From assembly GCA_964452635.1 (NCBI GenBank), contig CAYVMP010000002.1:1-58905 (forward strand): a stretch of DNA of 58,905 nt, written 5' to 3'. Shown here one piece after another: positions 370 through 56,506 of this stretch. The notes below the pieces were generated by a model, which did no database searches, was not told where the DNA came from, and was given only the letters and a program-made list of their open reading frames with translations. This stretch comes from an uncultured Candidatus Saccharibacteria bacterium. Lineage in GTDB: Bacteria; Patescibacteriota; Minisyncoccia; Phycocordibacterales; DATDWN01. Within the stretch, counting starts at the first letter, position 1; each line of letters opens with the position of its first letter. A program made the translations under genes and the position numbers.

Positions 370-690
370 ATGTCATCAACATTTCAACGAAAGATTGAGA
401 ATTTTATATGTGAGAAATGTGGTTTCTCTGTAGAAGGGAATGGCTACACAAATCATTGCCCAGAATGTCTGTGGTCAAAACATGTCGATATTCATCCTGG
501 GGACAGATTGGCAGAGTGTGGCGGAATGATGGAACCTGTGCGTGTTGAAGTAAAAGGCGGGGAATACACAATCATTCACATCTGTACTGCGTGTGGACTT
601 GAAAGGCCAAATAAAGCAGTTGCAGAAGATAATTTTCATATGCTTGTCCAGATATCCGCAGAGCATTCAAAGAAGTTTCAATCTTCCTAA
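370..690 (+). CDS. RNHCP-domain zinc-ribbon protein
   Basis: Motifs CEKCG...YTNHCPECLWSKHVD...GDR..CGG.M.P...CTACG match the RNHCP domain pattern. Confidence 0.7.
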   Translation: MSSTFQRKIENFICEKCGFSVEGNGYTNHCPECLWSKHVDIHPGDRLAECGGMMEPVRVEVKGGEYTIIHICTACGLERPNKAVAEDNFHMLVQISAEHSKKFQSS

Positions 691-691
691 A

Positions 692-1879
692 CTAATTTTT
701 TGTTAACTCATCCGTAATGAGCTTAGTCAATGTCGGTGCCCAGCTTTTTTGGAAGTTGTGGGCTACGGTGGCTATATCTGTTGCGAGGAATTGAGACAAA
801 TCCTTACCTGTCTCTGTTTTGAGTGCTCTACTGATGTATGCAAGAGTAATAGCTCGAAGATCCCGTGTGTCCGTTGTATCACCGTCCGATGATGTAGAAA
901 TAATCCCTATGAGCGTGCCACGAGCATCAAACACTCCTCCACCCGATGCACCCTTTTGTGATATGACTGTCCCCGGAACAGAAATGAGGTCAACAGTATC
1001 CGCTTTAAATGTAAATATGTCTGCAATCTTCGTAATGGCACTTGTGAGGTATAAATCTTTGAGGATTGAAATTCCTCCAAGAAATCCAGCAGGGTAGGAG
1101 ACAAGTGCAGTGTACTCACCACGGTCTATATCCTCTCGAGTATTCGGTGGTATGAAAGGGAATACAGATGGGAGGGGGGTACCATCGGTGCTTTCGGTGA
1201 TGTGTAGGAGCGCAAAGTCGTTTTCACCTGTTCCTTTAGGATCGGTTTGCTTGAGGATGCCTTTATTTGCCTGTACCCATGTTGGCGATACATACACAAG
1301 CTCTGCTTTATATCGAGGATAGGCAGGACTTCCGGTGCGAATCGTACATTCGACAAAGTTCTGTGCAGAAAAATTTTCAAGAAGCCAGTACTCTGCTACA
1401 TGCGCATTGGTAAGGATGACTCCGCGTGAGTCAATAATCACACCGCTCGCAGTGATCGGGTAGAGTGTGCCTGCTGTTTGGGTGGTACAGAGAATATTTA
1501 CAAGAGCGAGTCGTGCGGATGTGTTAACCGCATTTAAATCCGGTGGGGTAGTGGACGCTGGTTTAAGAGGAATTGTTGGTGTTGACGTTGCTACAGTGGA
1601 ATTTTTGATAGTGATTTGTTTTACTTTCTTTGTTGATTTTGATGTAGTAGGTGTGGTCGTTGCTGTTTTTGGTGTAGTTGTTGCGAGAGCACTGGATTGA
1701 GAAGTGGTTTCGGTTTGCGTGCGGGTTTGTGCTACCGGTAATTGGTACCCCATAGTTTTTCTCCATGCATTCTGTGTAAATGTGTAGACAGAGAGGGGAA
1801 TCGGTCGAAATGATGCAAATACAAGGAGAGACGAGAGTGAAAGAAGTGCAATGATGAGAATTATTTTCAATCGAAGCAT
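692..1879 (-). CDS. Membrane-anchored trypsin-like (S1/HtrA-like) serine protease without PDZ domain
   Basis: N-terminal TM segment and a Thr/Ser-rich linker. Triad-like motifs TNAHVA, NDFALL and GASGGGVF. Confidence 0.75.
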   Translation of the reverse strand: MLRLKIILIIALLSLSSLLVFASFRPIPLSVYTFTQNAWRKTMGYQLPVAQTRTQTETTSQSSALATTTPKTATTTPTTSKSTKKVKQITIKNSTVATSTPTIPLKPASTTPPDLNAVNTSARLALVNILCTTQTAGTLYPITASGVIIDSRGVILTNAHVAEYWLLENFSAQNFVECTIRTGSPAYPRYKAELVYVSPTWVQANKGILKQTDPKGTGENDFALLHITESTDGTPLPSVFPFIPPNTREDIDRGEYTALVSYPAGFLGGISILKDLYLTSAITKIADIFTFKADTVDLISVPGTVISQKGASGGGVFDARGTLIGIISTSSDGDTTDTRDLRAITLAYISRALKTETGKDLSQFLATDIATVAHNFQKSWAPTLTKLITDELTKN

Positions 1880-4410: not shown

Positions 4411-4416
4411 AGACAT

Positions 4417-4446
4417 TCAAAAAGCGCTCGTGTGAGCGCTTTTTGA
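4417..4446. terminator. Bidirectional intrinsic terminator between convergent genes
   Basis: AAAAAGCGCTC-GTGT-GAGCGCTTTTT with A and T runs on both sides. Confidence 0.75.
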
Positions 4447-4466
4447 ATGATAGAAAGGGGAGAGGA

Positions 4467-4866: not shown

Positions 4867-6396
4867 CTATCGTGCAAACTCAATGCTTCGTGATTCACGA
4901 ATCACATTCACTTTTATCTCTCCTGGGTATTTGAGTTCGTTTTCAATACGGATTGCTATGTCTCGTGCCATTTTATGTGCCTCAAGATCTGTGACTTCTG
5001 TTGGTGTTACGAATATTCTGATTTCACGGCCAGCTTGGAGAGCATATGCTTTCTCAACACCGGTAAATGATGTTGCGACTGCTTCCAAATCACCAAGACG
5101 TTTGAGATAGTTTTCAATACTATCACTTCGGGCACCCGGTCTGCTTCCGGAAATAGCATCAACTGCCTGAACAATCATTGATTCGAGTGTTTCGTACGGG
5201 TATTCCTCGTGATGTGCCTGCATCGCCTTAATGATTGCTTCGTCAGTTCCAAATTTCTGGAGGATTCTGCGTCCGATTTCTACATGTGATCCAGCAACTT
5301 CGTGGTCGAGCGCTTTGCCGATGTCGTGTACGAGTGCACCTGCTTTGGCAACTGCTACGTTTGCACCGATTTCTTCAGCAATCATTCCTGCAAGGTGGGT
5401 CATCTCGACTGAGTGTGCGAGTACATTCTGTCCATAGCTGGTTCGGAAATGTAGTCGTCCGAGAATAGAGATAACACGAGGATCCAGTCCGAGTACACCT
5501 GTCTCGTACACAGCTTCCTCGCCTTTTTGTTTTATAATTTTATTAATTTCCTCCTCAGATTTCTTTACAATCTCTTCGATTTTTGCAGGTTGAATGCGTC
5601 CATCGGCAATGAGTTTCTCTAGAGCGGTCTTTGCAACCTGACGTCGAACAGGATCAAATGACGATATAGTAATTGATCCCGGTGTGTCATCAACAATCAC
5701 CTCAACACCAGTCACACGTTCGAATGCTTTTATATTTCTACCTTCTTTTCCAATAATTTTGCCTTTAATATCATCATTCGGAATGCTTACGTGTGTCGTG
5801 AGCATGTCAGATGTAACTGAATTTGCGAGTCTTTGGATTGATGTTGCAAGAATGGATTTTGCTTTCTGCTCAAATCTTTCCTCGCCTCCTATTTCTAGTT
5901 TGTGAATGCGGGCAAGAATATCTTCCTCCGATTCCCGCTCAACTTTCTGTAGAATTTCTTTTCGAGCTTCTTCTTGTGTGAGTTGTCCAATCTTCTGCAA
6001 CTCTTCTTTTTTCTGACGTTCAAGTTTTTCTGTGTTTTCTCGAATAGCTTTTATTTCCTCGATTCTCTGTTTAATCTGTTCAACTTCTCTATCAATGTCT
6101 GTCTGTCGGTTATCGAGCAACTCTTCCTTTTTAATCAATCGATCTTCTGTTTTCTTTTGTTTTTCTTCTTTTTCTTTGATTTCTGCACGAGCTTCTCGCA
6201 GAATCTCTTCTGCTTTTTTCTCTGCTTCGTCTATGATTGTTTTGTGTTTCTGCTCAGCTTCAAGTTGCATCTCCTTCAACTCAAGCTCCATAGAGCCCTT
6301 TTTACCGAGTGAGATGATGAGACGCAAATAATAGCCGAGCCCAATGCTGACCACTGATGTTCCTGCAAGGAGGAACAGTACTAATTTTAATGTCAT
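4867..6396 (-). CDS. rny: Ribonuclease Y
   Basis: N-terminal TM, long coiled coil, KH motif GKIIGKEGRNIKAFE, HD domain HDIGKA. Confidence 0.93.
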   Translation of the reverse strand: MTLKLVLFLLAGTSVVSIGLGYYLRLIISLGKKGSMELELKEMQLEAEQKHKTIIDEAEKKAEEILREARAEIKEKEEKQKKTEDRLIKKEELLDNRQTDIDREVEQIKQRIEEIKAIRENTEKLERQKKEELQKIGQLTQEEARKEILQKVERESEEDILARIHKLEIGGEERFEQKAKSILATSIQRLANSVTSDMLTTHVSIPNDDIKGKIIGKEGRNIKAFERVTGVEVIVDDTPGSITISSFDPVRRQVAKTALEKLIADGRIQPAKIEEIVKKSEEEINKIIKQKGEEAVYETGVLGLDPRVISILGRLHFRTSYGQNVLAHSVEMTHLAGMIAEEIGANVAVAKAGALVHDIGKALDHEVAGSHVEIGRRILQKFGTDEAIIKAMQAHHEEYPYETLESMIVQAVDAISGSRPGARSDSIENYLKRLGDLEAVATSFTGVEKAYALQAGREIRIFVTPTEVTDLEAHKMARDIAIRIENELKYPGEIKVNVIRESRSIEFAR

Positions 6397-7243: not shown

Positions 7244-7266
7244 AAATCTCTTTCTCGACGAGATTT
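7244..7266 (-). promoter_or_regulatory. Small 5'-leader hairpin with loop GTCGAGAAA, about 29 nt upstream of the clpP ATG (apparently unoccupied target motif of the foldback repeats)
   Basis: Minus strand reads AAAATCTC-GTCGAGAAA-GAGATTT. The same CTC-GTCGAG...CGAGAAA-GAG halves bracket the repeats at 28471-28660, 50024-50145 and, degenerately, 54597-54720. Confidence 0.5.
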
Positions 7267-9525: not shown

Positions 9526-10293
9526 TTAGTTAGTAGTATTAGTTGTTGTTGCTGTCTTGCCATTCCATCCTTTGAGGTTACCGAGTGCTTTCTCAAGTGA
9601 CTTACGAGCCTCTTCTATGTGTTTCTGTGTCTCGTTGGCTACTTTTCGTAACTCAATCATTGCTCCTAGTGTTGTTGATGCTGTTGTAGAGTTTGCTTCG
9701 ATACTTGCTGTTGTACTTGCAAGAGCAGTCATTTTAGTGAGACTGACACGTGCTTCACTAAGGTGTACCTTCGCCTCTGCGTCGAATTTTTCACTGACTG
9801 TTGTGTCTACTCCAGCGTTTTTTACTTTAGTAATTCGTGATTCAAGTCGTACAGCAATAGCACTTAATCGAGAGATGGTCGCATCAAATCTCTCAATCAT
9901 AGGATCGAAGCGGTTTCGAAGTTTGATACCCATGATTTCACGACGACCTTCTTCTCGTCTGTCTTTGATATCCTCACGCATATCTTTGCGAGCTTCTGTT
10001 GTACTTGCACGAAGATTTCGCATATCCTGCATTGTTGTACTTGCATTACCTCGCATGTCTTTTCGTATATCTTTGATATCCTCACGAGTTTCTGTTCGGA
10101 TATTTTTGACATCTACTCGAATACCCATACGAGCCTTTATTGCTTCGAGTACACCCTTTTTAGGTGCTGGTGTTCCTACAGATGCACTGCTGTTTACTTC
10201 TACATTTGTGCCTTCTTCTGCGTACACAGCTCCAGCACAGACGAGTATTGCCACTGCACAGATTGGAATTAGTTTTTTATAGTATGGTGTCAT
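9526..10293 (-). CDS. Secreted repeat/coiled-coil protein (255 aa)
   Basis: Signal-peptide-like N terminus (IPICAVAILVCAGAVYA). Reiterated DIKDIRKDMR / RKDMREDIKDRRE motifs. The antisense 241-aa ORF is Ser/Arg-rich and looks like an artefact. Confidence 0.65.
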   Translation of the reverse strand: MTPYYKKLIPICAVAILVCAGAVYAEEGTNVEVNSSASVGTPAPKKGVLEAIKARMGIRVDVKNIRTETREDIKDIRKDMRGNASTTMQDMRNLRASTTEARKDMREDIKDRREEGRREIMGIKLRNRFDPMIERFDATISRLSAIAVRLESRITKVKNAGVDTTVSEKFDAEAKVHLSEARVSLTKMTALASTTASIEANSTTASTTLGAMIELRKVANETQKHIEEARKSLEKALGNLKGWNGKTATTTNTTN

Positions 10294-10434: not shown

Positions 10435-10606
10435 AAAATCGATTAACTAAGTTTATTTTGGAACATCGCGCAGTTGTTTAGAAAACAACTGCGGGCGAGT
10501 GATGGGAACACGAGATCCGCATATTGTTTTCTTGAACGACGAGCGTGAGGAAAATTTTCACCAGAAAATTATTCTGTTTCCAAAATAAACTTAGTTAATC
10601 GATTTT
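10435..10606 (+). repeat. Foldback repeat copy A (long core, about 30-bp unique arms)
   Basis: Arms AAAATCGATTAACTAAGTTTATTTTGGAAC / GTTTCCAAAATAAACTTAGTTAATCGATTTT. Core 10456-10586 is 129/131 identical to 28501-28631. Confidence 0.85.
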
Positions 10607-11202: not shown

Positions 11203-11231
11203 TTGACAATAAACTTAAAAGCGTGTATAAT
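11203..11231 (+). promoter_or_regulatory. Near-consensus sigma70-type promoter
   Basis: TTGACA (11203-11208), 17-nt spacer, TATAAT (11226-11231), about 200 nt upstream of the ATG at 11436. Confidence 0.6.
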
Positions 11232-11435
11232 ATATGCCAGAAAGTGAGGTTTATAACACAGATTGAAAGCTGGGCGGAGTCTGCGGACTTTGCTAGTATC
11301 GAAGAGCTCTGCGCACGACGCATCTCTCAATCTTTAGAGAATGTAAATCATTATTTTTTCTAAAGACAACTCAATCACGTAAAACTAATTGAGTTGAGAT
11401 TGAAATGTTCTTTGAAGCCTCTGGGAGGGGGTAGT

Positions 11436-28438: not shown

Positions 28439-28470
28439 ATTTTTTTGGTTAATCACTAAAATTTTGGTAT

Positions 28471-28660
28471 CGGCTATAATCTCGTCGAGCACATATCTCA
28501 TTTTGGAACATTGCGCAGTTGTTTAGAAAACAACTGCGGGCGAGTGATGGGAACACGAGATCCGCATATTGTTTTCTTGAACGACGAGCGTGAGGAAAAT
28601 TTTCACCAGAAAATTATTCCGTTTCCAAAATGGGATATGTCGAGAAAGAGATTATAGCCG
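28471..28660 (+). repeat. Foldback repeat copy B (long core) nested in the GTCGAGAAA-loop hairpin
   Basis: Outer stem CGGCTATAATCTC/GAGATTATAGCCG. TCGAG at 28485-28489 and 28640-28644. Arms ACATATCTCATTTTGGAAC / GTTTCCAAAATGGGATATGT with one T-G pair. Confidence 0.85.
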
Positions 28661-28688
28661 AACATCCAATTACTGTATACTATACCAC

Positions 28689-29612
28689 ATGGACAGCTTT
28701 CTCTCTCACGTTCGTACATATATTCGTTGGTATAGTATTGCGTTTCTTGTATTGGTGTCTGGTATCGTGTGGTACGTGTATTATCGCGAAAGTCGACATG
28801 GGCTACTCACCGTAGCATTTCTCAGTGTCGGTCAGGGCGATGCCATTTATATTGAATCACCGACTGGTACTCAGGTGATTGTGGATGGAGGTCCTGCTCA
28901 AAATCTCATGGGAGCGCTTTCTCATGTGATGCCGTGGTACGATCGACATGTCGACATGATTGTTGTGACAAACCCAGACCTCGATCACTACTCTGGATTC
29001 ATCTCGTTTCTTAATAGATACAGAGTCGATTCAGTTCTTGAATCCGGAACGAAATCAAAAACAGAAACGTATGCACTTTTGGAAAAAGAAATAAGTAATA
29101 AAAAAATTCAGAAAATTGTTGGTACGCGCGGTCAGGTTATTGATATTGGTGGGGGAGCATACCTCTCCGTACTTTTCCCCGACAGGGATGTATCCGATGT
29201 ATCAAGTAATGACGGATCACTTGTCATGAGACTTGTGTACGGTGACACGTCTGTGATGTTGCAGGGTGACTCAACTGCGCGGATTGAGGAGTATTTGATT
29301 TCTCTGGATATGAAAAACGCAACGAGTACTCTCACAAGCACAATTCTCAAGGCGGGTCATCATGGTTCTCGAACATCAACAACGGAATCGTATGTGGCAC
29401 GAGTTCATCCGCAGTGGGCAGTCATATCATCGGGCACAAACAATGACTATGGGCACCCACACATCGAAACACTCAAAACTCTTGAAAAGTTTTCTGTACC
29501 AACACTTGATACATGTGTCATGGGAACAGTTGTGTTTACGTCAGACGGAATCAATCTTCAATTGAAAAATAAAAAAATAATTCCAGTATCCGCGGGGTGT
29601 TTACGGAAGTAG
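28689..29612 (+). CDS. ComEC-type metallo-beta-lactamase domain protein with its own TM anchor
   Basis: VGQGDAIYIESPTGTQVIVDGG, NPDLDHYSG, KAGHHGS motifs. Start set at the ATG at 28689. The upstream ORF extension is read-through of repeat B. Confidence 0.8.
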   Translation: MDSFLSHVRTYIRWYSIAFLVLVSGIVWYVYYRESRHGLLTVAFLSVGQGDAIYIESPTGTQVIVDGGPAQNLMGALSHVMPWYDRHVDMIVVTNPDLDHYSGFISFLNRYRVDSVLESGTKSKTETYALLEKEISNKKIQKIVGTRGQVIDIGGGAYLSVLFPDRDVSDVSSNDGSLVMRLVYGDTSVMLQGDSTARIEEYLISLDMKNATSTLTSTILKAGHHGSRTSTTESYVARVHPQWAVISSGTNNDYGHPHIETLKTLEKFSVPTLDTCVMGTVVFTSDGINLQLKNKKIIPVSAGCLRK

Positions 29613-31535: not shown

Positions 31536-31543
31536 AGTAAAAG

Positions 31544-31567
31544 AAAAAGAGCCGAAAGGCTCTTTTT
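31544..31567. terminator. Intrinsic terminator after rpsG
   Basis: AAAAAGAGCC-GAAA-GGCTCTTTTT. Confidence 0.75.
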
Positions 31568-31637
31568 CTTTTACTGGTAAAATATTTTGATAATGAAAAC
31601 TCCCCCTATGTGGGGGAGGTATGTTTGGAGATTGTGT

Positions 31638-31891: not shown

Positions 31892-32011
31892 TCAGATCTG
31901 CACAACATATCTTTTTTAGAACATGTCGGAACTCGTGAAGAAGTGAGATTGAGGAAAAATCGTAGCAACGATTTATTCCGTTTCTAAAAAAGATATGTTG
32001 TGCGGATCTGA
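31892..32011 (+). repeat. Foldback repeat copy D (short core)
   Basis: Arms TCAGATCTGCACAACATATCTTTTTTAGAAC / GTTTCTAAAAAAGATATGTTGTGCGGATCTGA with one T-G pair. The core aligns with copy C. Confidence 0.8.
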
Positions 32012-34263: not shown

Positions 34264-34284
34264 TAGAAAAATAAAATAAATAAA

Positions 34285-34325
34285 TTAACAAAACATCTTG
34301 TGCACACCACAAGATGTTTTGTTAA
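34285..34325 (+). terminator. Intrinsic terminator after fusA
   Basis: 18-bp perfect stem TTAACAAAACATCTTGTG/CACAAGATGTTTTGTTAA. Confidence 0.75.
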
Positions 34326-34362
34326 TTGTGTGTTGTTCGTGGAGGTACTATAATGTAATTCA

Positions 34363-38555: not shown

Positions 38556-38658
38556 ATTTTGCCAATCTCATCGTCTATAATCTTTAAATAATTCTCACCT
38601 ACGCACTCAAGGCAGGCTCGAATTATTTAAAAATTCTATACGCGACCTTGGCTAAAAT
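38556..38658 (+). repeat. Second-family foldback element, copy G (conserved apex TCACCTACGCACTCAAGGCAGGCTC)
   Basis: Imperfect long hairpin containing the perfect 12-bp helix TTTAAATAATTC/GAATTATTTAAA. The apex 38595-38619 matches 45305-45328. Confidence 0.7.
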
Positions 38659-41736: not shown

Positions 41737-41765
41737 TTGACTTTTACATTGAAAAGTAGTATAAT
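41737..41765 (+). promoter_or_regulatory. Near-consensus promoter inside the S10 operon
   Basis: TTGACT (41737-41742), 17-nt spacer, TATAAT (41760-41765). Confidence 0.6.
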
Positions 41766-41771
41766 ATATGA

Positions 41772-44884: not shown

Positions 44885-45256
44885 ATGATACAACCACGAT
44901 CAATTGTAAAAATAACTGACAACACTGGTGCTAAAATCGGACGTATATTCAAAGTGCTTGGAAGTTCAAAGAAACGATACGCAAGTATCGGTGAGATGGT
45001 TGTGCTTTCAGTTCAGAAAGCAGAACCACGAAAGGGTGCAAAAAAGAAAGACGTGTTGTATGCAGTGGTTGTTCGTCAAAAAGCTCCATTCCGACGCAAG
45101 GATGGTTCATACATACGATTTGATGAGAATGCAGTGGTAATCGTACAGAAAGAAAAGAAAGAACCAGTTGCAGGACGTGTGTTCGGACCGATTCCACGAG
45201 AGATTGGTGAGGTGGGGTATCAGAAAATAATCAGTTTGGCCCCTGAGGTTGTATAG
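44885..45256 (+). CDS. rplN: 50S ribosomal protein L14
   Basis: MIQPRS...DNTGAK start, 123 aa. Confidence 0.97.
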   Translation: MIQPRSIVKITDNTGAKIGRIFKVLGSSKKRYASIGEMVVLSVQKAEPRKGAKKKDVLYAVVVRQKAPFRRKDGSYIRFDENAVVIVQKEKKEPVAGRVFGPIPREIGEVGYQKIISLAPEVV

Positions 45257-45379
45257 AACCTTCACATTGAGCGCATTTCGTTGTTGGAATGTTAAAAATA
45301 ATGTTCACCTGCGCACTCAGGCAGGCTCACATTCTTTTCAACATTCCGCCTAGAACTGCATCTCAATGAGAAGGTTCTG
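45254..45379 (+). repeat. Second-family foldback element, copy H (apex TCACCTGCGCACTCAGGCAGGCTC)
   Basis: Arms TAGAACCTTCACATTGAG / CTCAATGAGAAGGTTCTG and TTGGAATGTT / AACATTCC. Begins at the rplN stop codon. Confidence 0.7.
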
Positions 45380-45420
45380 TATTGCCAAAATCGGAAATTA
45401 GTGTATATTCAATTCTAATC

Positions 45421-46320: not shown

Positions 46321-46797
46321 ATGAGTAGTTTTGAATGTTGGGTGACTGCGGTCATCCTGATCGTTATCTGTGCTTTTTTGATTTGGTTTCTGGTTGTGAG
46401 GAAGATTAATGAGGAAAACCAGAGGCTGAAAGAAGAAAATGAAAGTCTCAGACATAAAACTACCACAGAGTCATTTTTGTGGAATATTTTTTCTGGGTTA
46501 AACCTATTCTTGGACTATATTGACAGGGAAATACCCGTGTCTGTATATTGTACACTTTCTCTTTCGCATGATTCTATAGAGGTATACTGGCAACCTCGCT
46601 TGTCAAAATCTAAAAATCCAGCATCAAAGAATACTATTGTATTGGTGTCTGTGATTAATGATGGGAGTGTTGTACTATCCAGGGGTGAGGTGCAAGAAAA
46701 TTTTTTTGCAATGTCTAATGCTTGGGATATACAACATAGAGTTATGGGAATTATAGATGAATTTTTGAAAGACTATAAAGTATCATGTAGCAGTTAG
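46321..46797 (+). CDS. N-terminally anchored orphan protein, cassette 1 (158 aa)
   Basis: GGAGG 8 nt upstream of the ATG at 46321. TM segment WVTAVILIVICAFLIWFLVV. Distant similarity to the cassette 2 protein. Confidence 0.6.
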   Translation: MSSFECWVTAVILIVICAFLIWFLVVRKINEENQRLKEENESLRHKTTTESFLWNIFSGLNLFLDYIDREIPVSVYCTLSLSHDSIEVYWQPRLSKSKNPASKNTIVLVSVINDGSVVLSRGEVQENFFAMSNAWDIQHRVMGIIDEFLKDYKVSCSS

Positions 46798-46805
46798 GAT
46801 GACGA

Positions 46806-46838
46806 CCAGTGTGCCCCCGAGGGGAGCCCACTGGTTTT
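46806..46838 (+). terminator. Repeated terminator hairpin, copy 1
   Basis: ACCAGTGTGCCCCCGAGGGGAGCCCACTGGTTTT is identical to 47299-47332. Confidence 0.7.
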
Positions 46839-46893
46839 ATTTTATATTGACTCGTATTTTGAATAATGGTAGTAATAGTTCGGAGGTGAGTAT

Positions 46894-47292
46894 ATGTTTT
46901 TTCTCGTGGTTGTCGGTATGTTTACTTTTGTGTTGGGTGTCGTTGTATTGGTACAGGGTATTCATCACAGAAGAAAATTTGTTGTTTTCAACGAGAGACT
47001 AGGTCTCCTATCAACAAGAGATTTAGGTGAACTTTACAAAAGCATTAAAAATTTTGTTGATTCAAACAATCTAACTTCTCAATTGGCAGTCTCGTGTGGT
47101 TTTGAAAGTAACTCAATTGATGTTTGTACTGCTGATTCGGGTAGCAGATTATTTTCTGTGATAATAAATTACTCTAACGGTCATCATATTAAAATTGATG
47201 ATGGTCAGGTAACCGCGTGGGAGATATTCGGAGTAATGGAAGTTTTAGAGATGTGTAAAAGAAAGATTGTTAGTCATCGTGTGCAGGTCTAG
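46894..47292 (+). CDS. N-terminally anchored orphan protein, cassette 2 (132 aa)
   Basis: GGAGG 7 nt upstream. TM segment FFLVVVGMFTFVLGVVVLV. The upstream 45 nt are paralogous to cassette 1. Confidence 0.6.
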   Translation: MFFLVVVGMFTFVLGVVVLVQGIHHRRKFVVFNERLGLLSTRDLGELYKSIKNFVDSNNLTSQLAVSCGFESNSIDVCTADSGSRLFSVIINYSNGHHIKIDDGQVTAWEIFGVMEVLEMCKRKIVSHRVQV

Positions 47293-47299
47293 CAGATAA

Positions 47300-47332
47300 C
47301 CAGTGTGCCCCCGAGGGGAGCCCACTGGTTTT
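47300..47332 (+). terminator. Repeated terminator hairpin, copy 2
   Basis: Same sequence as 46806-46838. Confidence 0.7.
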
Positions 47333-47345
47333 GTTTATTCATTTA

Positions 47346-50023: not shown

Positions 50024-50145
50024 CATTCTCGTCGAGCACATACTATTTTGGAACATCCCGGAAGGCGTGAAGACCTGAGGGCGAGGAAAATTTTCAGCAG
50101 AAAATTATTCCGTTTCCAAAATGGTATGTGTCGAGAAAGAGAATG
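50024..50145 (+). repeat. Foldback repeat copy C (short core) nested in the GTCGAGAAA-loop hairpin, between rplO and secY
   Basis: Outer stem CATTCTC/GAGAATG. TCGAG at 50032-50036 and 50131-50135. Arms CACATACTATTTTGGAAC / GTTTCCAAAATGGTATGTG with one T-G pair. Confidence 0.85.
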
Positions 50146-51451: not shown

Positions 51452-51655
51452 AAAAAATCTTTGAACCAATATCTTTCTGGCACATCGCACATAAGGGTAC
51501 ACTTACATCTGATGTACTCATCAGATGAGAATTTAAAAAAATTTTCGAGTGGTGTGGATTGGAGAGGCCCCGGAGCCGACGGGCGAGGACCTGAGGGAAT
51601 TTCGCACCAGCGAAAACCCGTACTCTCCAAGACATACCACGAGAAAATTTTTTTT
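51452..51655 (+). repeat. Composite/degenerate foldback repeat copy E between secY and adk
   Basis: Left end CCAATATCTTTCTGGCACATCGC matches copy F. 3' module CCTGAGGGAATTTCGC-ACCA-GCGAAAACCC matches the family hairpin. Outer AAAAAAT/ATTTTTT pairing. Confidence 0.6.
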
Positions 51656-51676
51656 AAATTTGCTATCATATTACCT

Positions 51677-54182: not shown

Positions 54183-54596
54183 ATGACACGTCCACATTTA
54201 TTTAAACACGCATTCATCACACTCATACTCGTTGGTGTTTTGAATTTCATCGCAACTCGACTGTATTTGTACTGGACTACTCAATACTTTGATAGTCTCG
54301 TACACTTTACTGCGGGTATATCAGTTGGATTTGCGACACTTTGGATTGTGTCACGGAGTCAGCCATCATGGACGACCATCGAGATATTCCGAGTGGCATT
54401 TTTCGGTACACTAGCCATCGGTCTTCTGTGGGAGGCATACGAACTCATGTTTGGCATCACATCAATCCTCGACGGTGTTCACTATGTCACCGATACACTA
54501 TTTGATTTGGTGATGGATGTGCTTGGGTCAGTTGTGGCGGCATTCTATTCGATGGGACTTGCAACCACGACACCTTCAACAGAACAAATTAAATAG
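54183..54596 (+). CDS. Four-TM membrane protein, hypothetical (137 aa)
   Basis: Four hydrophobic helices. No motif recognised. Confidence 0.6.
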   Translation: MTRPHLFKHAFITLILVGVLNFIATRLYLYWTTQYFDSLVHFTAGISVGFATLWIVSRSQPSWTTIEIFRVAFFGTLAIGLLWEAYELMFGITSILDGVHYVTDTLFDLVMDVLGSVVAAFYSMGLATTTPSTEQIK

Positions 54597-54720
54597 AAAA
54601 CTCGTCGAGCCAATACATTTCTGGCACATCGCGGAACGAGTGAATACACGTGAGCGTGAAGTAAGTGTTCACTTCGTTCCCTTATCCGGTGACAGAAAGG
54701 TATTGGAGAGAAAGAGTTTT
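54597..54720 (+). repeat. Foldback repeat copy F (variant ends TTTCTGGCAC/GTGACAGAAA)
   Basis: Outer stem AAAACTC/GAGTTTT with GTCGAG...GAGAGAAA halves. Arms CCAATACATTTCTGGCAC / GTGACAGAAAGGTATTGG. Inner hairpin GGAACGAGTGAA...TTCACTTCGTTCC. Confidence 0.7.
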
Positions 54721-54740
54721 CTATTTAATTCAATTATATC

Positions 54741-56111
54741 ATGCATAAACTACAAATTACATTTTGGGGAGGAGTTGGAACAGTGACGGGAGCAAATTTC
54801 CTGCTCGAAAGTTTGAATACTCGAATTCTTGTGGATTGCGGACTGCTTCAGGGTGTCAGTGGGGCAACAGAGGAGAATCTTAAGCCATTTCCATACGATC
54901 CAAAAACTATTGATTTCCTCTGTATCACACATGCACACATGGATCATATTGGACGAATTCCAAAACTTGTTCGTGATGGATTTCGAGGAACTATTTATTC
55001 AACCGGCGAAACTCGTGAGATTGCATACCTCATGCTTCTCGACGCAGTAAAGGTGATGAAGATGAATGCGCAGGAACATCAGGATACAAGTAGGGAATCA
55101 ATGTATGAAATAGCAGATTTGGAGCAAGCATTTAACCAATGGAAAGTCATTCCGTATCACACCGAGACATCGATTGGTTCAGATTTTACGGTGTACCTAA
55201 AAGACGCTGGGCACATCCTTGGCTCATCGATGTATGAGTTTCGATATGAAGGAAAGAAAATACTTTTTACAGGGGATTCTGGGAATTCACCGACCCCATT
55301 ACTCAAAGATACGGAGTCTATTGAAGGAGCGGATTACTTGATTATGGATAGTGTGTACGGTGATAGAAATCATGAGCCAAAGGATGAACGCGATGAGAAG
55401 TTTAGACGTATTGTAACAGAAACCATACAGGCAGGTGGGGCGCTCGTGATACCTGCTTTTTCTCTTGAACGTACACAGGTGATCCTCTATGAGCTTAATA
55501 ATTTGGTAGAGGAAGGAAAAATTCCGTCTGTGCCAGTGTTTCTTGACTCTCCGCTTGGTAGCAAGGTAACTGCAATCTACAAGCGAAGTTGGCGAGATTT
55601 TAATATGGGAGTGCAAGGCGAGATTAAAAAAGGCGATGATATTTTTAATTTCCCGAAACTTCGAATCACTCAGAATTCTCTTGAATCACGAGAGATCGAG
55701 AGTGTTTCCAATCCAAAAATTATTATTGCAGGATCGGGCATGTCTTCCGGTGGGCGAGTGCTTGGGCACGAGATTAATTTCCTGCCAGATCCGAAGAGCA
55801 CACTCCTTCTCATGGGGTATCAGGCCATAGGGACGCTTGGTCGTGAGATTCAGGATAAACCACGAGAGGTAGTGATTAATGATACGACCGTATCTGTACA
55901 AGCACGAATTGAAATGATATCGGGATACTCGTCCCATAAGGACTCGGATCATCTTCTCGAAATGGCAGAACAGGCAAAGGCAACACTCAAAAAGGTCTTT
56001 GTGGTGATGGGTGAGCCAAAGGCATCAGCTTTTCTTGTTCAGCGACTTCGAGACTATATTGATGTCGATGCTGTATACCCAGAGAGAGGGAAGGCGTATC
56101 CGCTTGAGTAA
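54741..56111 (+). CDS. Beta-CASP family MBL-fold ribonuclease (CPSF/RNase J-like)
   Basis: ITHAHMDHIGRIP (HxHxDH), beta-CASP region, C-terminal SGYSSHKD motif. Confidence 0.85.
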   Translation: MHKLQITFWGGVGTVTGANFLLESLNTRILVDCGLLQGVSGATEENLKPFPYDPKTIDFLCITHAHMDHIGRIPKLVRDGFRGTIYSTGETREIAYLMLLDAVKVMKMNAQEHQDTSRESMYEIADLEQAFNQWKVIPYHTETSIGSDFTVYLKDAGHILGSSMYEFRYEGKKILFTGDSGNSPTPLLKDTESIEGADYLIMDSVYGDRNHEPKDERDEKFRRIVTETIQAGGALVIPAFSLERTQVILYELNNLVEEGKIPSVPVFLDSPLGSKVTAIYKRSWRDFNMGVQGEIKKGDDIFNFPKLRITQNSLESREIESVSNPKIIIAGSGMSSGGRVLGHEINFLPDPKSTLLLMGYQAIGTLGREIQDKPREVVINDTTVSVQARIEMISGYSSHKDSDHLLEMAEQAKATLKKVFVVMGEPKASAFLVQRLRDYIDVDAVYPERGKAYPLE

Positions 56112-56116
56112 CAATA

Positions 56117-56150
56117 AGAAAAAACACCACTTGATTGTGGTGTTTTTTCT
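56117..56150. terminator. Bidirectional terminator between convergent genes
   Basis: AGAAAAAACACCAC-TTGATT-GTGGTGTTTTTTCT. Confidence 0.75.
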
Positions 56151-56506
56151 TATTGTGCGAGTGCAACTATTTTCTTGAATGTGTCTGGATTTTCGGATGA
56201 GAGTGTCGCGAGGATTTTGCGGTCGATGAGGACGTTTTTCTTTTTCAATCCACCCATAACTTTACTGTATGAAAGTTTAGTCTCACCACTCATTGCTTTG
56301 AGAGCGTATGAAATGTTTACATTCCACATGTTTCGAGCATCACCCTTTTTGTCTCGTCGGTGAGCAAATGCGTATGCACCAGCATGGAAGATTGCCTCAG
56401 TCGCTTGTCGCTCCTTAGTACTTCGTCCATATCGGTATCCCTTTACTTTTCGGAGGATATTTTTTCTTGATTTGAGCGCATTAACGCCTTTTTTTACTCG
56501 TGTCAT
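56150..56506 (-). CDS. rplT: 50S ribosomal protein L20
   Basis: MTRVKKGVNALKSRKNILRKVKGYRYGRS start. Confidence 0.96.
   Translation of the reverse strand: MTRVKKGVNALKSRKNILRKVKGYRYGRSTKERQATEAIFHAGAYAFAHRRDKKGDARNMWNVNISYALKAMSGETKLSYSKVMGGLKKKNVLIDRKILATLSSENPDTFKKIVALAQ

Follow-up and report, generated by a model that had tools for sequence, protein, structure and literature searches.

Positions 28471–28660 of contig CAYVMP010000002.1, of which a stretch of 58,905 nt (the window) was analysed, lie between two divergently transcribed genes, sod and the gene for a ComEC-type MBL protein, and contain on the plus strand a complete foldback of 190 bases, which we call copy B. As plus-strand RNA, the region 28460–28690 was predicted to fold at −94.6 kcal/mol, compared with −48.9 ± 4.2 kcal/mol for 200 shuffled sequences (z = −10.8), and the minus strand folds at only −79.7 kcal/mol. 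Repeat finding and a covariance model revealed in the window six full copies, each of them on the plus strand, together with one half copy and one bare stem base (Table 1), and more than 60 further members were found outside the window in other Parcubacteria genomes and metagenomes. Copy B belongs to an undescribed family of 110–190-nt structured intergenic repeats in Parcubacteria (Paceibacterota), whose unit is the entire foldback; the CTC-GU-CGAG / CGAG-AAA-GAG base, earlier taken for a target hairpin, is part of it. We consider it probable that the family is a non-autonomous mobile (selfish) element that depends on its structure.

From the outside in, the consensus consists of a copy-specific outer stem of 0–25 bp, the base CUC-GU-CGAG...CGAG-AAA-GAG, P1, which is a long stem interrupted by a symmetric tandem G.A motif and leading to a three-way junction, the junction AU, and then P2 and P3. 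P2 has 3 bp in P2a, an internal loop GSA/GA and P2b, which in the short form closes in a loop such as NGUGAAGA or GACGG and in the long form extends as a ~55-nt arm with the apical motif CGAG-YG-NGGG-MACACGAGA; P3 reads CG-A-GGAAAAUUUUC-ASCA-GAAAAUU-A-UUCCG. In the window, copies A and B have the long P2. Much of the preliminary description of copy B agrees with this anatomy: the perfect 13-bp outer stem formed by CGGCTATAATCTC and GAGATTATAGCCG (28648–28660) is in the sequence, TCGAG is present both at 28485–28489 and at 28640–28644, and the exact 15-mer CTCGTCGAGAAAGAG has one other occurrence, at 7248–7262 on the minus strand. Other details needed adjustment. The arm ACATATCTCATTTTGGAAC (28491–28509) does pair with 28622–28640 with one U.G pair, but there is a second departure, an offset at the apical end, and the core, given as 131 nt, corresponds to a 132-nt block (28500–28631), the distance between the arms being 111–114 nt. 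The element does lie in the divergent sod/MBL spacer, and its end is 28 nt, not 29, before the ATG at 28689.

Covariance model R1 was built from an alignment (A1) of six short copies and R2 is the refined model; copy B is matched at 28480–28654 with 90.6 bits by R1 and 98 bits by R2. Metagenome loci were picked by a scan with the P3 pattern, which gave 54 loci containing 58 members according to the covariance model. In 61 distinct sequences, standard pairs were seen in 91.1% of cells, as against 63.6% when shuffled, and double-sided changes were seen at 36 of 39 pairs. The covariation score was 0.616, compared with 0.18 for the shuffled control and 0.07–0.13 when the partners were slid by 1–3 columns, and G.U or U.G was found 146 times among the paired cells versus 30 times for A.C or C.A. 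One pair of P3 (columns 148/174) is G.U in 51 of the 61 sequences. When 54 copies were folded singly, the sense strand was the more stable one in 50 of them, by 6.25 kcal/mol on average (p = 4e-11), and this was so for all six copies of the window. Thus both compensatory changes above the controls and strand asymmetry, as looked for in a structured single-strand element, were observed, and the fold is kept by compensatory change and selected on one strand.

The TCGAG pentamers had been interpreted as a 5-bp target-site duplication, to be expected around every copy. CGAG facing CGAG, each read 5′ to 3′, gives the pairs C-G, G.A, A.G and G-C; the two pentamers look alike because such a symmetric tandem G.A motif necessarily reads identically on both strands of the helix. 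Among the 39 copies in which both pentamers could be aligned, they are identical in only 5, whereas GA is kept on both sides in 22, and the closing pairs covary, with the variants CGAG/CGAG, UGAG/CGAG, CGAA/UGAG, UGAG/UGAA and CGAC/GGAG. Copy A, the closest to B in its core, has neither the TCGAG pair nor the arms of B, and the identity between the two copies ends at ATTTTGGAAC/GTTTCCAAAAT, ~10 nt inside the arms of B and not at TCGAG. In addition, the whole base CTC-GTCGAG...TCGAG-(A/T)AA-GAG, which had been thought to exist before the insertion, occurs with the element in other genomes: it was found at 1264–1384 and 9637–9756 of the related contig L003 and in many metagenome copies, and copy C has the same base as B (CTC-GTCGAG/TCGAG-AAA-GAG). 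The basal motif of copy E is fully symmetric with no flanking loop (UUUU-CGAG...CGAG-AAAA). Because few pentamers are identical, GA is kept on both sides, the closing pairs covary and the frame recurs in other genomes, we take the pentamers to be a structural part of the element and not a target duplication.

Comparison of orthologous sites suggests how copies come and go. The sod–MBL spacer lacks the element and is 47 nt long in the closest relative (L296), 67 nt in L005, 123 nt in L001 and 149 nt in L298, while L003 and L297 have there a family member on the strand opposite to B; the spacer is therefore occupied in three of seven genomes and in both orientations. The rplO–secY gap, which holds copy C, is 171 nt in the window versus 1–27 nt in most of the nearest relatives, and at the site of copy F relatives have the genes for a membrane protein and the beta-CASP RNase either overlapping (ATGA) or abutting. 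In L006, a copy separates adk from map, which are 8 nt apart in the window. A copy in L242 occupies, in antisense orientation, the 5′ end of a group I intron that is inserted after GGAUUAGAU of the 16S rRNA gene. These comparisons show the gain of copies at positions where relatives have none, among them the boundaries between genes that elsewhere overlap or abut and the 16S group I intron. Since no hairpin can have existed beforehand at the sites of C and F, the frame arrived with the element. Thus the preliminary description was right to see in B an inserted element, as the repeat was gained at the sod–MBL site, but its specific model, in which a pre-existing leader hairpin received the element in its loop and TCGAG was duplicated as a 5-bp target, was not supported, the results being those that the description had itself named as refuting.

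Among 80 related species, 8 (~10%) have a copy at the secY locus (R2), and carrier genomes contain roughly one copy per 3–10 kb. Within 12.5 kb, the related contig L003 carries four copies, three of them strong and one weak, and further copies were found in L006, L032, L039, L057, L059, L064, L080, L297 and L005.

Copies also recombine with each other. Copy B is such a mosaic, joining a C-like base and P3 (95% identity to C, 60 nt) to an A-like long P2; its interior is 98.5% identical to that of A over 132 nt (10455–10586 versus 28500–28631). The long P2 of B is homologous to that of copies in three other contigs (L250, L262 and L003 8469–8643), and for this reason we regard it as an old subfamily and not as a nested insert. 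The outer stems vary between copies. That of A is a perfect 29-bp palindrome unrelated to that of B and without the CGAG frame, and that of F is a perfect 17-bp stem that reaches into the upstream gene, whose final codons and stop codon it includes. No 3′ arm matching the half copy was found anywhere in the window. In L258, copies at 662–758 (minus strand) and 785–901 (plus strand) stand head to head 27 nt apart, which suggests clustering or insertion beside existing copies, as with E and the half copy.

Table 1 Parts of copy B and the other copies and remnants of the family in the window
Feature	Position	Strand	Remarks
Outer stem, 5′ arm, copy-specific, CGGCTATAATCTC	28471–28483	+	pairs with 28648–28660; TATAAT on both strands
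Basal internal loop, 5′ half, GU-CGAG, first TCGAG	28484–28489	+	YGAR kept in 22/39 aligned copies, closing pairs covary
P1, 5′ strand, CACATATCTCATTTTGGAAC plus junction AU	28490–28511	+	partner 28621–28639; compensatory changes at all P1 pairs across the family
P2, long form: P2a UGC/GCG, internal loop GCA/GA, long arm, apical motif CGAGUGAUGGGAACACGAGA	28512–28590	+	alignment A2
P3 hairpin, UG-A-GGAAAAUUUUC-ACCA-GAAAAUU-A-UUCCG	28591–28621	+	conserved G.U pair, ASCA loop
Basal internal loop, 3′ half, U-CGAG-AAA, second TCGAG	28640–28647	+	
Copy A	10435–10606	+	directly after ppa stop codon, convergent context
Copy C, short P2, between rplO and secY	~50024–50145	+	127 bits
Copy D, between rpsG and fusA	31892–32011	+	95 bits
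Copy E, divergent member between secY and adk	51532–51657	+	35 bits (R1), 58.5 bits (R2)
Copy F, upstream of beta-CASP RNase gene	54587–54730	+	83 bits; Pfam matches
Truncated 5′ half of an F-like copy	51453–51488	+	repeat family D6; older copy, nested or decayed, abutting E on its upstream side
Bare stem base, AAAUCUC-GUCGAGAAA-GAGAUUU	7244–7266	−	28 nt upstream of clpP; 7-bp hairpin

If the family is a mobile element that depends on its structure, its active form would be a folded single strand, either single-stranded DNA (ssDNA) or an RNA intermediate, and the fold would be recognised by a factor or enzyme encoded elsewhere. The perfect copy-specific outer stems may arise after insertion by fold-back or template-switch copying of one flank, for which the 17-bp stem of F with the stop codon of its upstream gene would be an example, or they may travel with the copy. 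At the sod/MBL site, B would simply occupy the divergent promoter region.

Several points weigh against this reading. No transposase, reverse transcriptase or nuclease partner was seen among the 20 open reading frames (ORFs) scanned in the window, which covers 59 kb and was not followed by a genome-wide search. No consistent direct repeat was found outside the hairpin base, and the outer boundaries showed no terminal sequence that is conserved, so that the element falls outside the usual definition of a miniature inverted-repeat transposable element (MITE). The databases contain no closely related strain, and presence and absence were inferred across species and not within a population. The alignment was fitted to the model, the conservation of P3 is inflated as the metagenome copies had been chosen by the P3 pattern, and gene orientation comes from crude ORF calls. 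Finally, strong covariation and conserved loop nucleotides are expected equally of an RNA that benefits the host.

A bolder form of the mobile-element reading is unlikely, though it has a real chance of being correct: the family would be a new kind of bacterial mobile element, in which a branched fold rich in tandem G.A pairs spreads as a folded single strand (RNA by way of reverse transcription, or ssDNA by way of a structure-specific enzyme) and builds its own copy-specific inverted flanks by fold-back copying. If so, this would let the element land between overlapping essential genes and in rRNA introns of the streamlined genomes of the candidate phyla radiation (CPR). In a variant of this idea, the three-way junction may be a catalytic or protein-recruiting RNA that, for example by self-processing, makes the insertions harmless.

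The main rival is that the repeats are cis-acting RNAs that benefit the neighbouring genes, as bidirectional terminators, sites for RNase III processing or RNA stability that punctuate operons in the manner of rRNA intervening sequences, or sites for a tandem-G.A-binding protein. The strong covariation, the conserved loop nucleotides and the strand-biased fold would fit such a role, and stems of 25–45 bp are plausible substrates of RNase III. The hairpin base is typically 0–15 nt from a stop codon, which would also fit, and 10–110 nt from a start codon; these distances are also as expected of anything that fills a short spacer. In many copies the 3′ base continues into a U-rich run, GAG(A)UUUU, to which an A-run corresponds 5′ of the hairpin. 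The asymmetric core, however, is antisense to the genes as often as sense: between tandem genes, 13 copies point the same way as the genes and 15 the opposite way. Of the remaining spacers, 6 are convergent and 8, that of B among them, are divergent, where a terminator is not needed. Copy B itself is not an intrinsic terminator, as its stem is followed by AACAUCC and not by the U-tract of the GAG(A)UUUU tails that several other copies carry, a scan gave no terminator-like site, and its context is divergent. Moreover, the family is missing from ~90% of the sampled relatives, whose genes overlap at the same junctions, and one copy is within an intron. We therefore hold a host-beneficial RNA to be unlikely.

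Orientation was also compared with GC skew. The sense strand is G-rich in 14 cases and C-rich in 21, showing no link to GC skew; in the window, GC skew is positive throughout 1–58905 and the six copies are all on the plus strand. Because orientation is unbiased with respect to both the flanking genes and GC skew, neither the simple prediction of an mRNA element nor that of ssDNA on the lagging strand is supported. Genes to the left of ~14 kb in the window are mostly on the minus strand, and gene orientation switches near nusA/pilB without a matching switch of the skew.

That only the core moves, entering the loops of perfect AT-rich palindromic terminators so that the outer stems are split terminator arms, is quite doubtful. 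The window does have many perfect AT-rich palindromes of 16–20 bp with 4–6-nt loops after genes (31536–31575, 34283–34327, 56111–56156 and 4414–4449), which look like the ordinary bidirectional terminators of the genome and resemble some of the outer stems, and the stem of A is such a palindrome, directly after the ppa stop, around a core nearly identical to that of B. In relatives, however, the sites of C and F are overlapping or abutting genes with no terminator, the outer arm of F takes in the end of a coding sequence, and the CGAG frame and lower P1, being conserved across genomes, belong to the element.

The earlier proposal that a mobile segment between the TCGAG pentamers entered the loop of a pre-existing regulatory leader hairpin CTC-GTCGAGAAA-GAG site-specifically, duplicating TCGAG, is largely refuted and very improbable. 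It is true that B, C and in part F show the frame expected from the hairpin at 7244–7266 plus an insert, and that B, C and two copies of L003 each have identical pentamers. Yet of the 22 copies in which the motif is retained, 17 have differing pentamers, and the closing pairs covary, copy A has the core of B without the frame, the boundary of identity is inside the arms of B, and at the sites of C and F a hairpin would not fit between the genes of relatives. In 1.31 Mb of the window and related loci, one bare frame hairpin was found versus at least 14 occupied frames. A deletion between the TCGAG repeats of a full copy would yield the identical “empty” sequence, and the bare base at 7244–7266 may be either the remnant of such a deletion or a minimal form; given the bare-to-occupied ratio of 1:14, a deletion seems the more economical reading, though not a proven one.

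Least probable of all are small RNAs transcribed on their own, which would act in trans or resemble guides in the manner of the TIGR-Tas box C/D-like units, since a strand-specific structure, GA-rich motifs and the precedent of TIGR stem-loop units in CPR bacteria and phages, where box C/D-like motifs are flanked by palindromic stems (PMC12045711), are set against dispersed singletons in place of arrays, promoters and flanks without conservation, a neighbourhood in which no Tas or Nop-domain gene was seen, variable segments that pair together and are thus not free guides, and GA motifs that by inspection are off the kink-turn and box C/D consensus.

The family was also compared with known repeats and RNA motifs. 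Rfam 15 at the gathering threshold yielded only a tRNA in the window, and permissive scans of copies B and C (E ≤ 10) gave nothing or chance miRNA-type matches of at most 17 bits. Among published accounts of intergenic hairpins, MITEs and RNA motifs in CPR bacteria or Parcubacteria, no description of the family was found; the TIGR-Tas paper alone came up, and it deals with arrays and not with dispersed elements. Pattern scans of viral contigs gave 36 and at least 120 matches, near the roughly estimated chance number and all judged to be chance, and the covariance model found no member in the 36 loci of the first scan. By inspection, the family does not fit a kink-turn or box C/D motif, as the basal motif is a symmetric CGAG/CGAG with the GU/AAA loop on the wrong side and P2 has GSA/GA with a single extra base. 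The consensus cores of hammerhead, hairpin and twister-sister ribozymes, also examined by inspection, do not fit either, and there was no Rfam match. An integron attC site was rejected because R boxes are absent, the centre is conserved and not variable, and the flanking genes are housekeeping ones (rplO, secY, adk, dnaK, grpE).

In its behaviour, the family works most like ERIC/IRU, Correia/MITE and REPIN elements and the intervening sequences (IVS) of bacterial rRNA. ERIC/IRU elements of enterobacteria are imperfect palindromes of ~127 bp that are intergenic and often transcribed. Both they and the present family occur in either orientation and with patchy copy number among species, have size variants made by internal segments, and conserve a structure that suggests action as a single strand. 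There is no sequence similarity between them, however, and the present family has a three-way junction, two conserved side hairpins, tandem G.A motifs and copy-specific extended outer stems, and is much denser in its carriers.

Correia (NEMIS) elements of Neisseria and other MITEs have conserved terminal inverted repeats and duplicate their target (TA), and the hairpin RNA is a substrate of RNase III. As with the present family, they are non-coding hairpin repeats of 100–160 bp beside genes, come in long and short forms and can bring promoter boxes. The two tests of a classical MITE gave other results here: terminal inverted repeats are not shared, the outermost arms being CGGCTATAATCTC in B, AATTAAATAGAAAACTC in F and AAAATCGATTAAC in A, no flanking target-site duplication was found, and the inner frame and core are the only parts conserved across copies.

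REP/REPIN repeats, which are mobilised by RAYT (Y1 HUH) transposases, and PATEs derived from IS200/IS605 are recognised as folded ssDNA. They share with the present family the dependence on structure, compensatory changes in stems, the lack of classical terminal repeats and target duplication, and an intergenic position often just after genes. Unlike them, our family shows in alignment A2 no conserved REP sequence or GTAG-type tetranucleotide, its core is much larger and branched, and it has no consistent orientation to GC skew; no RAYT/TnpA or other Y1 transposase was seen in the window, of 59 kb only.

The IVS of bacterial rRNA are sporadic extended stem-loops of 100–200 nt in transcribed RNA genes, which are tolerated because they are removed. 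One member of the present family is likewise inside a 16S rRNA gene, but this L242 copy, which runs antisense to the rRNA, is placed in a group I intron, and the other copies examined are outside rRNA genes, nearly all of them between protein-coding genes. MIRUs of mycobacteria are short repeats between operon genes whose stop and start codons are otherwise adjacent. Insertion between adjacent operon genes is common to both families; MIRUs, however, are tandem direct repeats with small ORFs and not foldbacks.

Parcubacteria have genomes of ~1 Mb or less, in which genes often overlap. A repeat at the above density in its carriers that is absent from most sampled relatives would be a notable component of such genomes, and members are wedged into the rplO–secY, secY–adk and dnaK–grpE junctions and a 16S rRNA intron. 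The lack of terminal repeats and target duplication, together with self-complementary copy-specific stems, points to a mechanism outside the usual MITE scheme. As a large, strongly covarying and strand-specific three-way-junction fold outside Rfam, it is a candidate for studies of RNase III processing, protein binding to G.A motifs and self-cleavage. For the annotation of CPR genomes, it matters that the elements can displace promoters and interrupt operons.

At the sod/MBL locus, we also considered how B is placed relative to promoters. The MBL genes of the window, L001, L003 and L005 have a TATAAT-like box 7–10 nt before the ATG, and the MBL genes of the group look leaderless; as the box is so close to the ATG, B is upstream of the −10 box of the MBL promoter and not in a 5′ leader. 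Each arm of the outer stem of B has a TATAAT that points into the element. On the minus strand, TATACA (28679–28674) and TATAAT (28656–28651) are separated by 17 nt, with 10 of 12 matches, which is not above shuffle expectation. From this arrangement we infer that the pair could drive sod with the antisense of the element as its leader, and the right arm of B may supply the −10 box of such a promoter. The exact SOD and MBL proteins of the window have no database record, and the best MBL homologue is 69% identical. On the other side of the MBL gene, L297 (2936–3052) and L003 (9637–9756) have a sense copy in the convergent spacer between MBL and rpmB (L28), directly after the MBL stop, where the window has 19 nt.

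Canonical promoters of the form TTGACA-17 nt-TATAAT, followed at once by ATATG, were seen at 11203–11236 and 41737–41770 (family D17), and taken with the MBL genes they suggest that this organism makes frequent use of leaderless mRNAs. A hairpin immediately before the S10 ribosomal operon (38572–38642) has a 5′ arm that begins with CGTCTATAATCTT, resembling CGGCTATAATCTC, and may be a promoter-bearing palindrome.

The 16S rRNA gene of L242 (977–3406, minus strand) is 2430 nt long and contains several insertions. The group I intron with the family copy at its 5′ end follows approximately E. coli position 793, helix 6 has an insert of 127 nt, another of 77 nt lies near position 190, and there is a group II intron fragment at 580–693. 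The rplO–secY spacer of L015 and L017 (~5877–6000) has a different repeat of 116–124 nt, made of ACGAAT/ATTCGT units and unrelated to the family. Two other kinds of repeat were seen in the window: a nested foldback of another type at 45252–45381, with arms TATAGAACCTTCACATTGAG/CTCAATGAGAAGGTTCTGTA around a 27-nt inverted repeat (45286–45347), and a G+C-rich hairpin repeat (D3) in the ribosomal-protein cluster at 46751–46842 and 47245–47336, which has CGAG and is terminator-like, with ACCAGTGTGCCCCCGAGGGGAGCCCACTGGTTTT followed by a T-run.

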